From the NCBI GenBank assembly GCA_963699585.1, contig CAVOUK010000007.1:361-64360 (forward strand): a stretch of DNA of 64,000 nucleotides, given 5' to 3'. Positions 7,195-61,612 of this stretch are shown piece after piece. The notes beneath the pieces are model-generated. The model had not been told where the DNA came from, searched no databases, and saw only the letters and a list, made by a program, of their open reading frames with translations. Source of the stretch: Thermodesulfovibrionia bacterium (GTDB taxonomy: Bacteria > Nitrospirota > Thermodesulfovibrionia > UBA6902). Both the position numbers and the translations under genes were made by a program. Numbering within the stretch: position 1 is the stretch's first letter; each line of letters opens with the position of its first letter.

Positions 7195-7290
7195 TAACAG
7201 TTATGGATTAAGAATTAAGGATTACGGTTATGGAAGTAAGTTCTACCTTCAACTATCCATCACTACTTACTCCTTATCTTAATTATCCTG
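7195..7290. repeat. Heptamer-periodic palindromic array overlapping the serS 3' end
   Basis: TTAACAG TTATGGA TTAAGAA TTAAGGA TTACGG TTATGGA followed by a complementary-type C/T-rich arm (CTTACTC CTTATCT TAATTAT). Confidence 0.55.
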
Positions 7291-8555
7291 TCGGTTCCCA
7301 TGAAATGCCTTAAGGCGTCGGGTATTATAACAGAACCGTCTTCCTGTTGAAAGTTCTCAAGGATAGCTGCAAAGGTGCGGCCGACAGCAAGTCCGGAGCC
7401 ATTAATGGTATGGACAAATTCAGTGCCTTTCCTGCCTTTTCTTTTAAACCTTATATCAGCTCTCCGTGCCTGAAAATCTTCAAAATTAGAACATGAGGAA
7501 ATCTCCCGGTATTTACCCTGCGCAGGAAACCATACTTCAAGATCATACGTTTTTGCCGCAGAAAATCCAATATCTCCGGAGCAGAGAGCTGCAACACGAT
7601 ACGGCAGATCAAGTCTCTTTAAAATTTCCTCTGCATTTCCAGTGAGGGCTTCAAGTTCATTATATGAATCTTCCGGTTTTGTAAATTTAACAAGCTCAAC
7701 TTTATTGAACTGATGCTGCCGTATCAGCCCCCTTGTATCTTTGCCATATGAGCCTGCCTCCCGTCTGAAGCAAGGCGTATAAGCAGTGTAATAAATCGGC
7801 AAGTTATCTTCATCCAGTATTTCTTCTCTGTGCATGTTCGTAACCGGCACCTCGGCGGTAGGTATTAAAAGCAACGCCTTTGAATCATCCGCCAGTTTAA
7901 AAAGGTCTTCCTCGAATTTCGGGAGCTGTCCTGTACCTGTCATCGCTTCTCTGTTAACAAGCAAGGGTGGAAATATCTCCGTATAACCGTGCTCCTTTGT
8001 ATGAAGATTGAGCATGAAATTTATCAGGGCCCTTTCAAGTCTCGCACCAGCCCCTCTTAAAATAACAAACCGTGCGCCGGAAATCTTTCCCGCTCTCTCA
8101 AAATCGAGTATCCCCAAGTTCTCGCCTATGTCCCAGTGGTTTTTCGGTCCAAAAGTAAATTGCGGCTTATCGCCCCAAGCCCTTATTTCTTTATTGTCCG
8201 TATCGTCTTTTCCAATGGGGACTGATTCATGAGGGATATTGGGAATAAGTAAAAGTTCCTGCTTCGCCCTGTCTTCCAATAGCCTCAGGTTTTCTTCTTT
8301 GGCAGTGATATTATCAGATACTGACTTCGCTTCAGCAAGAATATCAGTTGCGTCCCTGCCTTCTTTTTTCAGTTTGCCGATCTCCTGAGACAACCTGTTT
8401 CTTAGCTGTCTCTGTTCTTCGACAATGCGCAGTAAATCCCGCCCCTCCTGTTCAATTTCGAGGAACTTATCGAGTATGTCACTCTTTTGCCCTCTTTTTT
8501 TAAGGGCGTCTATTACCTTGTCAGTATTTTCTCTTACAAATCTGATGTCGAGCAT
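7263..8555 (-). CDS. serS: Serine--tRNA ligase
   Basis: [10 protein letters not shown] start, [45 protein letters not shown]. Confidence 0.98.
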
Positions 8556-8579
8556 GGATTTTTACAACCTTTAAAAAAA

Positions 8580-8657
8580 GTTTAATTAGTTTAATTAGTT
8601 GTATTAGTTCTATTAGTTAACCAACTCAACTAATGAAACCAATTCAACCAATCCAAC
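8580..8657. repeat. Nonamer tandem-repeat palindrome centred on GTTAAC (family A, copy 1)
   Basis: GTTTAATTA GTTTAATTA GTTGTATTA GTTCTATTA [GTTAAC] CAACTCAAC TAATGAAAC CAATTCAAC CAATCCAAC. Confidence 0.85.
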
Positions 8658-8854
8658 AGTCTTTTGTAACCAATGAAACTTGTTTGTTTTTTTGTACATA
8701 TAAGAGTAAGGCAAATGGAATGAAAAATCAACACGTTTTCAGCCGTTTTTATTATTAAAATCAAATACGCCTGTAACTAAGGCAGGTAACAATTGACTTT
8801 GTCTCTGTTTTTATGTTAAAAAATATGTCTATTTCCGAAATTGGAGGCATTTTT

Positions 8855-9163
8855 ATGTTTGCTATATTAGAAACAGGTGGAAAACAATACAGGGTTTCTG
8901 AAGGAGATGTAATAAAGATAGAAAAAGTTAACGAGACCGAAACCGTTACCTTTGATAAGGTACTGATGGTTTCAGATGGCGATAAAATTTCAGTAGGCAC
9001 CCCTTTCCTTTCTTCTGCAAAAGTTACTGCTGATATCGTGGGTACCGGCAAAGGCGATAAAGTCCTTGTGTTTAAAATGAAACCCCGGAAGAACTACAGG
9101 AAGATAAGAGGACACAGACAGCTTTATACTGAAGTGAAGATCAAAGGGATACAGGCCCAATAA
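8855..9163 (+). CDS. rplU: 50S ribosomal protein L21
   Basis: MFAILETGGKQYRV...RGHRQLYT; SD GGAGG before ATG 8855. Confidence 0.97.
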   Translation: MFAILETGGKQYRVSEGDVIKIEKVNETETVTFDKVLMVSDGDKISVGTPFLSSAKVTADIVGTGKGDKVLVFKMKPRKNYRKIRGHRQLYTEVKIKGIQAQ

Positions 9164-9185
9164 ATATTGGTTGGAGGACATATAA

Positions 9186-58751: not shown

Positions 58752-58774
58752 GGGCTGGTTTCAAACCCGCCCGT
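58748..58774 (+). repeat. GTAG-type REP hairpin supplying the TAG stop of the NtrC gene
   Basis: GTAGGGGCTGGTTTCAAACCCGCCCG. Confidence 0.72.
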
Positions 58775-59447
58775 TTATATATACTCTATTCCGGCCCTGA
58801 ATTCATTATTGCCCGTCATTGAGATCCATTTAACAATCCCCGCCTTATGCTCTGCCCCTTCGATCTCAATGGTCTGGCCGGCATGGAGTGAGTACTCTGT
58901 AAGGATACCAATTCCCCCATCACTGATATCAACTATATTCCCTTTCAGGTTCAGTATCCTTGATTCTGCAAGTTCAGCGGCTTTTATGGAAAAATCAAAG
59001 GTTTCTTTTAATGGCCTTCTCTCATGCCTTCTCTTGCTTCTCCTGCTTTTCCATATTAATTAGTGGTTCGGACGATCCATCTTTCTCCAGAGCATTCTTC
59101 AGAATAAATTTGACCTGATAGAAATCAAAAGGTTTGGATATGAATTGATAGGCCATCTCTTCCACCTTTTTCTTGCACTCCTCATCAAGGTCTTCTGCTG
59201 TCATGATAATAACCGCGGTCTTCGGTGAAATCTTTTTTATCTTTTTCATGACGTCTATGCCGTTTGCATCGGGCAGGTGTATGTCTAAAAAACAGACATC
59301 ATAAAAACTGGAGGCTATTTCAGATGCAGCCTCAGTGCCGTTATCTATGGATTTAATTTCAACAGGACAGTTACAAAACGCAGGGATATGCTTTGACAGT
59401 CCCCAGCGGATCAGGTTATCGTCATCAACTATCATTATTCGCTTCAT
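58775..59447 (-). CDS. Receiver domain fused to a PilZ domain; frameshift near 59040
   Basis: REC ORF 59022..59447. An alternative frame reads KRRHERRPL...IVDISDGGIGI...GIVKW...FRAGIEYI to a stop at 58775 (RxxxR and DxSxxG). Confidence 0.8.
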
Positions 59448-59574
59448 AAAATATTTGCAATCAGCATATCATTTTTATCGTTTCTGCCAAGGTTAACTCG
59501 CGCTTGATGCGGCACAACTAATGCTTTAAAAGTAATGTCCGTGATAAGCGCATAATTTATCGTATAAAATATAA

Positions 59575-59590
59575 TGCAAATTCTGTACCA
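59575..59590 (-). promoter_or_regulatory. sigma54 (-24/-12) promoter
   Basis: TGGTACAGAATTTGCA (GG-N10-GC) about 130 nt upstream of the REC-PilZ gene. Confidence 0.75.
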
Positions 59591-59761
59591 ACTCTATTAA
59601 TATGTTCTTTTTTTATAAGAGTTCTGTTTTTCTCGAAGGGTTAGCAAGCAATAACGGGTCCGGCGGTCTTAAAAACTTTAACTCAGGAAGATCAGTTTTT
59701 GGTGATATGACCAGATACGATTGGTAGTTTTTTCTATTAGATAGATAGCCTGGATGATGTC

Positions 59762-61612
59762 TTACGGATAACTCTCGCCGGTATGGGTCCTACCATGGCA
59801 AACAAGCGTACAGTTTCCCGAAAAAGTGCCTGTATCATTGAATTCAGGGAATTGCTTGCCGGATGCCGGCATAACAACTCTTGTATCGAAATTTATCAGA
59901 TGCGTGTGACTTCCTGAAAGACCGTTGTCTGTTATTCCGTGGGGATCGTGACATACGGAACAGGGAGTGCCTTTTTAGGTCCGCAATGCGTTTTTTGTGT
60001 TCAACGTGAAACTCAAATCGCTCAGTATGCTCGTCCGGTCATGACACCTGTAGCAGAGCGCGTAATTCTGGTAGCTCTCCGGGGTATTGTCCAGGGTCTC
60101 GTATTGGTCCCTTAAGATAGGGGCGTAGGATGAACCATGAGGGCCTCTTGATCCGCCTGAATCATCACTATGGCAGTCGGTGCAATAGATGATACTTGAT
60201 GTTGTGAGGGACGGATTAAATGATGATGGTATGCTGGGTACATTAGGGTTTCTACCTGCTCCGACAACAGGGTGATAAGATGGATTTGTTATGGAAAAAG
60301 CATCCTGCATGTTCGTATTGTCAATAACTCTCGGGATGAAAGGCGTCCGCTGGAATAATTCCGCATGGCACTTAAAACAGATCTCATATTCATAATTGGC
60401 AGGATCAACAGCAGCCCTTTCGGCAGTCATTCCGGACACCTTTTCAAGCCTTCCGGATACATCGGGAGCTGATGCAGTCCGGTTGTTCGCGGCATGCGGA
60501 TTATGACAGTCTGCACATTCTACATGGCGGTTAGCAATAAATGTAGGTGATTCCGTCGGGTCGTGGCTACACCGGTGTACATAGCTCCACAGGATGCCTC
60601 GAAAGTTTCTGGAAATTTGAGAATATATGTTTTTCCCGCTACAGTTCCGTTATGGCATAGTATAGCAGGTATCTTCTTCATTAAGATGTATAGCAGCCGT
60701 TGAGGACCCCCTGCTGAATGGGGCGTATGACAGCCCTCACAAGCCCAGTCTGAGACAAGCGGCCAGGTCGGCCATGACCTTGGAGCTATGGGCAAAACAG
60801 TGCCCGTGGAGCTTGTAGATGTTTTATGGCTTGACAGCATCCAGCCGTCGATATTGCTGTGGCATGTGATGCATAATGCCGAGGCCCGGTTATCCATGAC
60901 AAGAAATTTCCCCGTCAGCTGGCCGTTCTTGTCCGACGACCTGTAGGCGTCCTCGTGCGCGTCATGACATGTCGAGCATTCAATAAACATGCTGCTGCCT
61001 CCGTAAAAAGGGAGGTCTGTAGGGAGAAGTGCCGGATTAAGTCCGGCATAAGGGTTCGGCAATGCATCGAGATACGAAAATGAGAAAGGGTGGTCGTCCG
61101 ACAGCACAACGCCGATATATGACGGCCTCCCCAGCGTGATCTGTCCTGTTGTTGCGATCCCGCCTGACGGCTGCAACACGGCTCCGAGTGCGAGGGTGCC
61201 GTCATGGCAACTGAGGCAGAGCCTTGACGGGCCATTCGGTTGTGAAGGCGTCACGCTCTGGGTCGTGCTTGTGTAAAGGATATAATTTACAGGGTCTATG
61301 GATTTATTCCACAAGCGGGGTCCTCGGAGTAGCATTATGCGGCGTATGACAAAAAATACAGATGCTGGTCTCGACCAGCGCCTTAGCTCACCCGGCCCTG
61401 ATACGGACATGTTATGCTTTGAATTAACGATCCCCACCTTTGAAACTGCGTCAGATGGAGAAACAGAAAACAGAATACAGAATACAGAAAACAGAATACA
61501 GAATACAAAATACCGAATTGCCTCCCGGCCCTGCGAACAGATTGTTAATCCGGTCAAATGCGTCGTGAGACGATTGACTGATGCCTCCTGTTCTATACAT
61601 GTTCATTTTCAT
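59762..61612 (-). CDS. Large periplasmic multiheme cytochrome c (about 11-12 hemes, doubled-CxxCH type); many frameshifts, start uncertain
   Basis: Across frames: CIFCHTPH, CLSCH, CSTCH, CITCH, CEGCH, a probable broken motif near 60660, CADCH, CFKCH, CTDCH, CYRCH, CSVCH and a terminal CTLVCH; stop at 59762. Confidence 0.88.
61464..61519. repeat. Heptamer tandem array encoding the cytochrome signal-peptide core
   Basis: (CAGAAAA CAGAATA CAGAATA)x2 CAAAATA CCGAATT; the minus strand reads YFVFCILFSVFCILFSV. Confidence 0.9.

Follow-up and report, generated by a model that had tools for sequence, protein, structure and literature searches.

We analyzed a window of 64,000 nucleotides (nt) of bacterial DNA, i.e., positions 361-64360 of contig C7 of a metagenome-assembled genome (MAG) designated G000 here, with relatives numbered from G001 upward and single loci given as L numbers. 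Many spacers in this window hold palindromic elements that consist of two inverted arms, every arm being a short tandem array of 7-10-nt units. The source genome represents the Nitrospirota (Thermodesulfovibrionia) and comprises 12 contigs with 2.42 Mb (43.9% G+C, 84% complete). Despite its cyanobacterial-looking repeats, G000 is not a cyanobacterium; this origin was rejected because HIP1 is not enriched and because the closest SerS loci belong to Nitrospirota/Thermodesulfovibrionia MAGs, which originate from groundwater and mines. The window contains 62 crude open reading frames (ORFs) with common housekeeping and signalling genes (serS, rplU, obg, proB, uvrC, recA, thpR/LigT, pgpA, ychF, multihaem cytochromes and two-component systems). 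None of the 62 ORFs showed a transposase domain, as a preliminary description of the window had also stated, and an Rfam scan of the window matched tRNA-Ser alone.

Tandem Repeats Finder (TRF) reported 38 rows for the window, which merged into 31 arrays with periods of 7-10 or 14 nt. An array was considered paired if a reverse-complement array was located at most 150 nt away with a Smith-Waterman (SW) score of at least 24, and arrays that were reversed only or complemented only served as controls; 8 of the 31 window arrays passed this test. Genome-wide, the numbers of arrays in real and block-shuffled sequence were 377 and 46 for period 7, 206 and 63 for period 8, 303 and 45 for period 9, and 103 and 8 for period 14, with tandem arrays of 7-, 8- and 9-nt units being 3-8 times enriched over shuffled sequence. 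The 7-, 8- and 9-mer arrays of the preliminary description were confirmed at their sites by TRF and by reading, far above shuffles; the strict periodicity ascribed to them was not, as the units are degenerate (66-100% matches in TRF). A reverse-complement partner was present for 199 of 1019 merged arrays in G000 (8 in the reversed-only and 29 in the complemented-only control), and these 199 collapse into approx. 130 palindromic loci on 10 of the 12 contigs, so the arrays are not rare outside the window. By crude ORF calls, 164 of the 199 paired arrays are intergenic, 13 partial and 22 genic. TRF density across 80 SerS loci was too noisy to split taxa, and a palindrome-specific test was used instead.

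The elements fall into several families. In 21 full G000 copies of family F9a the plan is fixed, i.e., ATC, three CRCAGATT units, an AT-rich loop, three AATCTGYG units and GAT; loops measure 15-31 nt, or 66-113 nt in four copies that hold nested inserts. This fixed architecture, together with position-specific preferences at the A/G and T/C sites of the 21 copies, points to descent of F9a from a master copy. F9a is represented in G000 by approx. 24 elements, and F10, a 10-mer element (GCCACWGAC type) with conserved ends (GCCACWGACTWACACWGA...) and frequently a nested 7-mer palindrome, by many. The commonest 9-mer family in G000, F9b, joins (ATTRGTTNN)x3-5 nearly directly to (AACYAATNN)x3-5, and its NN sites are not complementary. 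Other families include AT-rich 7-mers with a AATTAAGG...CCTTAATT centre, AAGGGRT, AGCTGWC and AGAAGWC units, and GGAAGYGC 8-mers. Families do nest within each other, as had been described: an ATTRGTT palindrome is located in the GCCACWGAC-type element at 16098-16325, and AGAAGTR palindromes are located in those at 22336-22489 and 43980-44117. Features of intrinsic terminators were not found in F9a, the family scanned, where the right flanks consist of GAT and mixed sequence with no T-run and the stems are AT-rich.

G000 also contains a family of GTAG-type repetitive extragenic palindromic (REP) sequences (GTAGGGGC(G/A) = TGTAGGGGC(G/A)...) with approx. 257 copies, including one at 12022-12049 in the window, and encodes one protein similar to REP-associated tyrosine transposases (RAYTs; PF01797, 61.6 bits; NF047646, 80.7 bits with a cut-off of 80). 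One possible explanation for the arrays would thus be that they resemble REPINs and are moved by this RAYT, and Bertels and Rainey are said to have observed in 2011 that REPIN loops are less conserved than their arms. However, an inverted repeat of 23 nt (GGGTCAGGTCTACAC...; its 15-nt core in 5 copies) and not tandem-unit arrays surrounds the RAYT-like gene (C2:663455-664471), the GTAG-type REPs are the better fit for a RAYT, and a dozen unrelated unit families are beyond one such enzyme. We consider this explanation improbable; the RAYT and the GTAG-type REPs of G000 are a system separate from the arrays. The RAYT-like gene bears a DnaA-C-like tail.

Inverted arms around two small gene families

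The preliminary description put forward, as unverified, that similar arrays flank small four-helix-bundle (PF05635) and GxxExxY-type (PF13366) genes in other genomes, and this was borne out for both families. PF05635 occurs in 39 of 41 genomes (G000 and 40 relatives) with 2-15 matches each, as compared to 1 of 14 control genomes. With a hidden Markov model built here we assembled 79 PF05635 genes from 46 genomes (41 Nitrospirota and 5 Desulfobacterota-type MAGs), 75 of these genes with at least 200 nt on each side; the first 30 represented the best match per genome, the next 40 were hand-picked (G001-G010, G018 and G024) and the last 10 were the choice of the search tool. A gene was classified as enclosed if its left flank matched the reverse-complemented right flank with an SW score that was at least 28 and greater than the best of 50 shuffles. 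Inverted flanks were found for 59 of the 75 genes, and 54 showed arms that were both inverted and periodic (period 7 in 37, period 8 in 14, other periods in 3); several of the 21 genes outside this periodic class are borderline. Among the controls, 37 of 2333 crude G000 genes passed, most of which sit between two complete palindromes or REPs, and so did 4 of 39 ORFs adjacent to the enclosed genes in these loci. Under the same test, PF13366 genes were located between inverted arms in 21 of 23 loci with adequate flanks.

Full-length cassettes measure approx. 450-600 nt and comprise a left arm, one small gene and a right arm. Where cassettes occupy different contexts, they are homologous up to the outer arm boundary and no further (L142/L159, 544 nt, 86.6%; L111/L113, 437 nt; L116/L117, 408 nt), while other pairs are syntenic orthologues that retain their arms at 72-91% overall identity, the lower value being that of AATTACG arms in syntenic cassettes of two genera. 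One syntenic set shows a concerted compensatory change in all units, with AAGTGAG replaced by AACTGAG in the left arm and CTCACTT by CTCAGTT in the right arm. The RNA fold of the whole L142 cassette is closed by pairing of the arms (z = -5.3), and start codons and C-terminal tails of enclosed ORFs are made from arm units. Gene-less arrays coexist with PF05635 cassettes of the same unit in the same genomes: AGGCACAA showed 44 matches in G001 (with 2 PF05635 matches), 23 in G024, 7 in G004, 2 in G029 and none in G000, and AATTACG arrays showed 53 in G024, 17 in G010, 4 in G004 and none in G000 and G006, with 0-1 matches for the reversed-pattern controls of both. About 220 nt upstream of the four-helix-bundle ORF at 1486-1890 in L117 (G014, C125) the left arm region forms a higher-order tandem repeat, in which a block of approx. 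50 nt with GGGTTCRAG units recurs several times, and includes an N run.

In G000 itself, one intact PF05635 gene (C3:33395-33709; TIGR02436; PDB 2GSC, E = 2.8e-16) occupies the longest of all heptamer palindromes in this genome, and a decayed PF05635 fragment (C2:135357-135473) lies beside two AATTACG units. No PF05635 match was found inside the window, where the elements are gene-less. Two candidates for a cargo of F9b were rejected, i.e., L154, where a four-helix-bundle gene has F9b units upstream of it and units in direct rather than inverted orientation downstream, and F9b-flanked ORFs in G000, which lie between two complete palindromes. The four-helix-bundle protein is homologous to Avd, an accessory protein of diversity-generating retroelements, according to the passages seen of PMC10053308, and is described as forming pentameric rings in those of PMC4990558 (citing Lin 2006). 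G000 encodes RNase III; it shows no reverse transcriptase, the partner of Avd, and nothing points to the dedicated repeat-writing enzyme that the preliminary description had proposed.

PF13366 is present in 22 of the 41 genomes (E <= 1e-8) and in none of the 14 control genomes. Its arms are 8-10-mers built on CAC(A/G)GA, none of them with period 7, and are represented by CACAGAGNN, GATTACACAGAT, the F10 motif (L228, L215) and F9a (L220 in G032, L225 in G020). They thus include the CRCAGATT (F9a) and GCCACWGAC (F10) families of the window, where inverted 8-10-nt units with the CAC(A/G)GA core occur at 24305-24390, 9556-9695, 22090-22226, 22336-22489, 43980-44117 and 16098-16325. In F9a-armed PF13366 ORFs the start codon and the C-terminal tail are located within the arms; for example, L220 has its ATG in the third left unit and a C-terminal KSVQSAKSAD encoded by the right arm. 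Among six PF13366 proteins inspected, all five full-length ones have an intact D...E-x-K motif. The CAC-N-GA core occurred at least twice on both sides of 12 of 23 PF13366 genes, as compared to 2 of 75 PF05635 genes, and its density was 11.1 per kb in PF13366 flanks, 2.0 in PF05635 flanks and 1.5 in the genome background. The F9a pairs seen in relatives are less than 200 nt apart, except in L220 and L225. The yebC-ruvC spacer is an insertion hot spot, with four different cassettes in four genomes (L111 in G001, L220 in G032, L225 in G020 and L228 in G015), of which one is a four-helix-bundle cassette and three are GxxExxY cassettes representing two arm families; this region is missing from the G000 assembly.

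SerS loci with palindromic arrays were also found among other Nitrospirota and in several Desulfobacterota-type MAGs. The five array-richest of these genomes contain 3-18 PF05635 matches, with 7 of 9 tested genes enclosed, and outside the phylum PF05635 was found in 5 of 5 array-rich as compared to 2 of 5 array-poor genomes, a small sample that is confounded by phylogeny and in which the groups were defined from one locus each. Of 25 PLSDB plasmid records with a PF05635 relative, 19 are cyanobacterial, and 6 of 8 cyanobacterial plasmid genes lie in inverted heptamers (Nostoc sp. ATCC 53789, two in N. punctiforme, Calothrix NIES-22, Pseudanabaena and Anabaena sp. 90); the two PCC 7120 plasmid copies have heptamers on a single side. 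On plasmids of Pseudanabaena galeata (L236) and Anabaena sp. 90 (L237), a four-helix-bundle cassette with heptamer arms is located between cas6 and cas4, a layout that may explain why 23S_rRNA_IVP appears among CRISPR-linked domains in the part seen of a CRISPR survey (PMC10910872). A related core is found beside GxxExxY genes on plasmids of Bacteroidota, Spirochaetota and Gemmatimonadota, with related CACGGAT/CGCGGAT units in other arrangements on Treponema and Gemmatirosa plasmids.

Turnover of the elements and explanations for their spread

The spacer between ychF and the aminotransferase gene was compared in 16 relatives, with G011 unresolved. Its length is 0 nt in both G002 and G017, as compared to 25-32 nt in both G019 and G014; among its contents elsewhere are F9a in G000, G008, G003, G004 (a 10-mer variant) and G020 (with a nested insert), a GTAG-REP pair in the closest relative (G006), a CACAGAG-type element with nested hairpins in G009, and unrelated elements of 160-230 nt in G005, G010, G007, G001 and G018. 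L001 (93% nucleotide identity) has other elements between tRNA-Ser and serS as well as upstream of obg, and its F9b palindrome upstream of serS has a different left arm. Strain contigs from four public runs, which are metagenome contigs at 88% likeness or more and hence supportive only, skip or replace 22090-22208, 20259-20333 and 19129-19205 and vary in the nested 7-mer palindrome at 22365-22456. Orthologous spacers, which the preliminary description had put forward for comparison, thus show both presence/absence and replacement polymorphism, and unit numbers differ from those in L001 and in the strain contigs, in agreement with its observation that they vary between copies. In the serS/tRNA-Ser spacer of L001 (11279-11427), a C-rich hairpin of the AATCCCCC...GGGGAGATT type is nested in an AT-rich 7-mer palindrome, and the window has a different 7-mer array.

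The F9a arm pattern was found in 17 of 41 relatives and in no control, with the number of matches per genome ranging from 0 (G002, G009) to 63-70 (G003, G004), and 36 in G020, which belongs to another family. F9b is essentially confined to G000, G006, G005 and G009, i.e., 4 of 11 genomes of the genus. G020 contains at least 5 near-identical composite copies in which CACTGAGA-type outer arms surround F9a with the same loop and without a gene; three aligned copies have unrelated outer flanks, and a related copy occurs in G007. Several element copies are located at contig ends in the draft assembly of a relative and may thus fragment metagenome assemblies; the copies also alter gene ends, even signal peptides.

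Changes in unit number look like ordinary slippage, and unit numbers differ between orthologous copies and between strains. Heptanucleotides, moreover, have been reported to be the most frequent type of long simple repeat in many prokaryotes and have been ascribed to polymerase slippage (Mrazek 2007, as cited in the passages seen of PMC4679880). If slippage and hairpin growth had acted locally and without any movement, with a 7-9-nt unit duplicated on one arm and then on the other, the same unit and 3+3 layout would have had to arise at 21 or more unlinked sites; near-identical copies, loops included, occur in different contexts, and orthologous sites are empty in relatives. Slippage can explain the change in unit number but not dispersal, and as the sole cause it is largely refuted and, in our judgement, very unlikely.

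Alternatively, the elements could be cis-elements of the host under selection, e.g., sites for a nucleoid or regulatory protein or RNA hairpins by which operon transcripts are stabilised or processed, with dispersal reflecting function. Unit cores are strictly retained while spacer bases and loops drift, F9a occupies the ychF spacer in five genomes with flanking genes that are 74-80% identical, and the AATTACG arms are retained across two genera; tandem-heptanucleotide hairpins of Geobacter metallireducens are annotated as putative IHF/HU sites in the part seen of PMC2700814. On the other hand, the neighbours of the elements are unrelated housekeeping genes, the closest relatives are empty or have a different element at the same site, congeners differ wildly (0-70 matches for F9a; F9b in 4 of 11 genomes) and no T-runs follow F9a. 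A host function of this kind thus appears unlikely.

Overall, these data suggest that the arrays are probably gene-less derivatives, similar to MITEs (miniature inverted-repeat transposable elements), of cassettes that carry PF05635 or PF13366 and resemble the intervening sequences (IVSs) of rRNA. A full-length cassette consists of an arm, a gene (PF05635/TIGR02436, or PF13366 of the PD-(D/E)XK superfamily) and an arm. The window members would represent internal-deletion derivatives and relics of cassettes, with a short or nested loop, and copies of gene-less members would have been inserted between genes and in the loops of palindromes already present. Elements are gained, lost and replaced fast, with the unit number shifting by slippage. 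Mainly because period and core motif correlate with the enclosed protein, we propose that the arm units may be binding or cleavage sites of that protein, and the protein, the nuclease above all, could drive or aid mobility in trans; the PD-(D/E)XK protein would be a more credible mobilising enzyme than the four-helix-bundle protein. Read-through transcripts may fold to stems for removal by RNase III of the host, in the manner of rRNA intervening sequences, and operons could then tolerate insertions. The proposal in the preliminary description that the arrays are non-autonomous mobilised products is partly supported, and mobilisation by the enclosed proteins is our inference.

The genes may also be passengers, if the palindromes spread by other means, their loops are favoured landing sites for small selfish genes, as for other palindromes, and the arm-gene-arm unit then travels together. 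Loops demonstrably receive other elements, two gene-less families spread as a single composite in G020, and F9a (G000, G003, G004) and F9b (four genomes) are abundant with no cognate gene among the matches listed; in addition, the PF05635 gene of L161 is located between two complete AT-rich palindromes and not inside one. However, period and core track the protein family, across phyla too, which would not be expected of a passive landing site; arm units provide the ORFs with their start codons and C-terminal tails, and related proteins have related units in different contexts. We consider a passenger role rather unlikely.

Several observations weigh against an origin of the arrays from PF05635 or PF13366 cassettes. 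No target-site duplication was found at four cassette ends or between filled and empty ychF spacers, with few clean pairs available. Loop sequences are unrelated among the 21 G000 copies of F9a, paired F9a units do not covary at their A/G-T/C positions (Watson-Crick pairs in 26 of 63, as compared to a shuffle mean of 33.8), and spacer bases are complementary in just 7 of 29; the unrelated loops and the lack of covariation suggest old copies kept by selection on the units, which fits better than recent copying. The unit of the intact G000 cassette, TCAAGTT, is absent elsewhere in G000, and no gene-bearing form of F9b was found. PF13366 had 0 matches in the G000 assembly (84% complete), no PF13366 gene lies beside F9a in G004 (70 matches) among the matches listed, and only 1 of 4 GxxExxY plasmid genes from other phyla passes the enclosure test (Bernardetia, CACAGAGA units). 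PF05635 loci past the first 30 are not a random sample, and kin are not independent, so the enclosure counts overstate significance. In the passages seen, PF05635 is described as uncharacterised and PF13366 as "unknown", with no catalytic or mobility function known for either.

There is a fair chance that the derivation of the arrays from such cassettes reflects a broader, undescribed class of mobile elements. More tentatively, tandem-unit palindromes and the TIGR02436 (S23p/Avd-like) and GxxExxY families could form one unrecognised class of miniature mobile elements in which each protein recognises its own arm units (7-8 nt or 8-10 nt), the nuclease cuts CAC-N-GA to move the cassette and gene-less copies are mobilised in trans; this class would cover cyanobacterial short tandemly repeated repetitive (STRR) sequences, rRNA IVSs and orphan heptamers and extend at least to Nitrospirota, Desulfobacterota-type MAGs and Cyanobacteria.

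Array sites and neighbouring genes in the window

The head-to-head layout that the preliminary description gave for the arrays of many spacers was found at 8579, 16167, 24305, 20281, 54007, 9556/9668 and 35625 and in the nested 7-mer palindromes at 22364 and 44021, while the arrays at 19160, 45215, 12051, 23135, 34771 and 61459 are single or weak and the pair at 7192 is degenerate (score 18). Four of six window hairpins tested folded with z values of -4.9 to -6.9, the weak ones being the 8-mer pair and the long-loop copy at 9550-9698.

Table 1. Tandem-unit arrays and palindromes in the window (positions as in the 64,000-nt stretch; fold z, z value of the hairpin fold)
Position	Strand	Feature	Support and variation
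7186-7285		Degenerate 7-mer arrays, tRNA-Ser/serS spacer	TRF 7192-7224; partner score 18; other elements in L001 (93% identical)
8579-8657		F9b 9-mer palindrome (ATTRGTTNN)x4 / (AACYAATNN)x4, near-zero loop	Fold z -6.0; left arm different in L001
9556-9695		F9a arms CRCAGATT / AATCTGYG (9556-9583, 9668-9695), 84-nt loop, upstream of obg	Fold z -1.6; replaced by other element in L001
12051-12092		Single 8-mer arm CTTCCNNN x5, directly after GTAG-type REP hairpin 12022-12049	By reading; under TRF threshold
14674-14703	+	(AGAAGTC)x4.3 within ORF 14417-15112, no inverted partner	TRF and partner test
16098-16325		Composite: outer F10-type element GCCGCTGATTTGCGCAGATTGACACGGATT ... GGCTAAATGC, nested F9b palindrome 16167-16253	F9b fold z -6.1; inner part differs in strain contigs
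19160-19198		Single 7/14-mer array TTACACA/TCACACA upstream of recA, no inverted partner	Run X1 contig skips 19129-19205
20281-20365		AT-rich 7-mer palindrome AATKANY ... RNTMATT	Partner score 39; fold z -4.9; run X2 contig lacks 20259-20333
22090-22226		F10-type element GCCACAGACTTACACTGACTTA ... CAGTGGC, then two F9a right-arm units AATCTGTGTAATCTGCGG	Run X2 contig: 10 letters in place of 22090-22208
22336-22489		F10 element AAAAAGCAGTTGGCCACAGACTAACACAGA ... TAAGTCAGTGTAAGTCAGTGGCTAAATGCC, nested AGAAGTR 7-mer palindrome 22364-22450	Nested unit number varies in runs X2, X6, X7
23135-23180		Single 8-mer arm AAGNNNGG x5	By reading
24305-24390		F9a: ATC(CRCAGATTN)x3, 18-nt AT-rich loop, (AATCTGYGN)x3 GAT; spacer of ychF and class-III aminotransferase fragment	Fold z -6.9
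34771-34800		Short single 8-mer arm, CTTYCNNN x3	By reading
35625-35712		8-mer palindrome (AGTGATGA)x4, loop, (ACTTCCNN)x4	Partner score 20; fold z -2.2
43980-44117		F10 element, nested AGAAGTR 7-mer palindrome 44021-44075	TRF and reading
45215-45256		Single array (AAGGGRT)x5, no inverted partner within 150 nt	TRF and partner test
54007-54126		AT-rich 7-mer palindrome, loop of approx. 50 nt, after sugar-transferase gene	Score 28, controls 25-27: weak by score, clear by eye
61459-61518	-	(AGAATAC)x8.7 in multihaem cytochrome ORF 60520-61557	TRF and translation

Arrays were said to contribute codons to four genes, and this was confirmed for three of them. serS (7263-8555, minus strand) ends in the right-hand part of the 7186-7285 arrays, from which it receives its stop codon and the approx. 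7 codons ahead of it, the final 3 codons and stop of thpR/LigT (20357-20950, minus strand) are located inside the right arm of 20281-20365, and (AGAATAC)x8.7 in the cytochrome ORF translates as a hydrophobic, signal-peptide-like N-terminal stretch (RYFVFCILFSVFCILFSV). The contribution to "the kinase" could not be verified; proB (10927-12021) terminates ahead of the repeats, and the TTG start of uvrC at 12043 is probably an over-extension. The BamA gene of G000 (C9:217600-220450) is apparently bracketed by heptamers, with (CTGTCTA)x4 upstream of the called start and inverted (AGTAGAC)x4 just past the stop; by eye, and with the called start being putative, the upstream array seems to encode a hydrophobic, signal-peptide-like stretch, which would be a second signal peptide made from a heptamer array, besides that of the window cytochrome.

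The ORF at 14417-15112 also contains (CAAGGGGGGG)x2 at 14737-14756, and C10:41829-41847 of G000 has a comparable pair, AAGGGGGGGC, for which CCCCCCC forms the inverted partner. The class-III aminotransferase gene is split into ORFs 24393-24956 and 25182-25688 with a gap of 225 nt, and several strain-contig joints are located in 24800-25600. The mnmG/gidA gene is likewise split (ORFs 4703-5155, Pfam GIDA 1-138, and 5185-6585, GIDA 156-390), the interruption being a stop, a frameshift or a fault of the assembly. A single 504-aa ORF at 49616-51130 (minus strand) joins LytB (IspH) and UbiA prenyltransferase domains.

Comparison with known repeats and mobile elements

For decades strains have been typed by STRR sequences and long simple repeats whose origin is not agreed upon, and many genomes contain annotated members of the S23p/four-helix-bundle and GxxExxY families, for which no function is known. 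The data presented here connect the repeats with both gene families, as the repeats are the arms of cassettes, period and core follow the protein, and gene-less copies are vastly commoner. They provide a candidate explanation for the intervening sequences of rRNA, for the repeat-rich intergenic regions of Nostocales and for the place of the four-helix-bundle family next to CRISPR loci. No general link of tandem-unit palindromes to both gene families was found in the full-text literature, with subscription journals and supplements outside the scope of the search.

Like the elements described here, cyanobacterial STRR heptamers and 5-11-nt long simple repeats are intergenic tandem repeats, the heptamers forming many families; the present host, on the other hand, belongs to the Nitrospirota. 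STRR sequences were reportedly treated by Mazel in 1990 and by Vioque in 1997 as fingerprinting repeats of unknown origin, and no link of STRR sequences to gene cassettes was found in the literature searched. Head-to-head heptamers are already in print for Xanthomonas (PMC4692102), for Geobacter (PMC2700814) and for one rRNA IVS (PMC4990558), as far as the passages seen go. In the first case, GGGAATC heptamers of Xanthomonas, reported together with Nostoc GGGGAYT, form 70-75 convergent, inverted and close pairs per Xanthomonas genome (Rehm et al. 2015, PMC4692102); they are read there as G-quadruplex formers, and the passages seen mention no enclosed gene. Geobacter metallireducens contains multicopy intergenic hairpins with five tandem heptanucleotides MTYCTGA (Aklujkar et al. 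2009, PMC2700814), which share the combination of hairpin and tandem layout but are annotated, in the part seen, as putative sites of global regulators. The TAACTGA heptamers of marine Beggiatoaceae are intergenic, near start codons and patchily distributed across phyla, including cyanobacteria (MacGregor 2015, PMC4679880); according to the passages seen they are, in contrast, nearly always direct (169 direct sets, one indirect), and a translational role has been proposed for them.

The 23S rRNA IVSs of Coxiella, Leptospira, Xanthomonas and others share with the cassettes a long inverted stem that encloses a four-helix-bundle ORF of approx. 120 aa. In one rRNA IVS, an S23p ORF is located in the loop, GACAGAT heptamers (2-3 copies) lie beside it in strain-variable number, and RNase III cuts the stem; the idea that an IVS is a mobile element whose ORF aids mobility goes back to Ralph and McClelland 1993 (both in the part seen of PMC4990558). 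The present elements, however, are located between or at the ends of protein-coding genes, none of them in 23S helix 25 or 45, and nearly all are gene-less; moreover, they comprise many unit families and a second cargo, the GxxExxY nuclease-like protein with its own 8-10-mer arms. RNA processing, which is established for the IVS, may by analogy apply to them.

REP/REPIN sequences and MITEs are likewise short intergenic palindromes that outnumber a protein-coding relative, have variable loops and nest. REPs are imperfect palindromes of 20-40 nt that carry GTAG or CGTC as an end tag, as given in the passages seen of PMC3733652, whereas the arms described here are tandem arrays without such a tag and their cargo genes are not known transposases. 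As in MITEs, the gene-less elements share their arms with longer elements, i.e., F9a and F10 with PF13366 cassettes and AGGCACAA and AATTACG with PF05635 cassettes; unlike the autonomous relatives of MITEs, these longer elements encode PF05635 or PF13366 in place of a recognised transposase.

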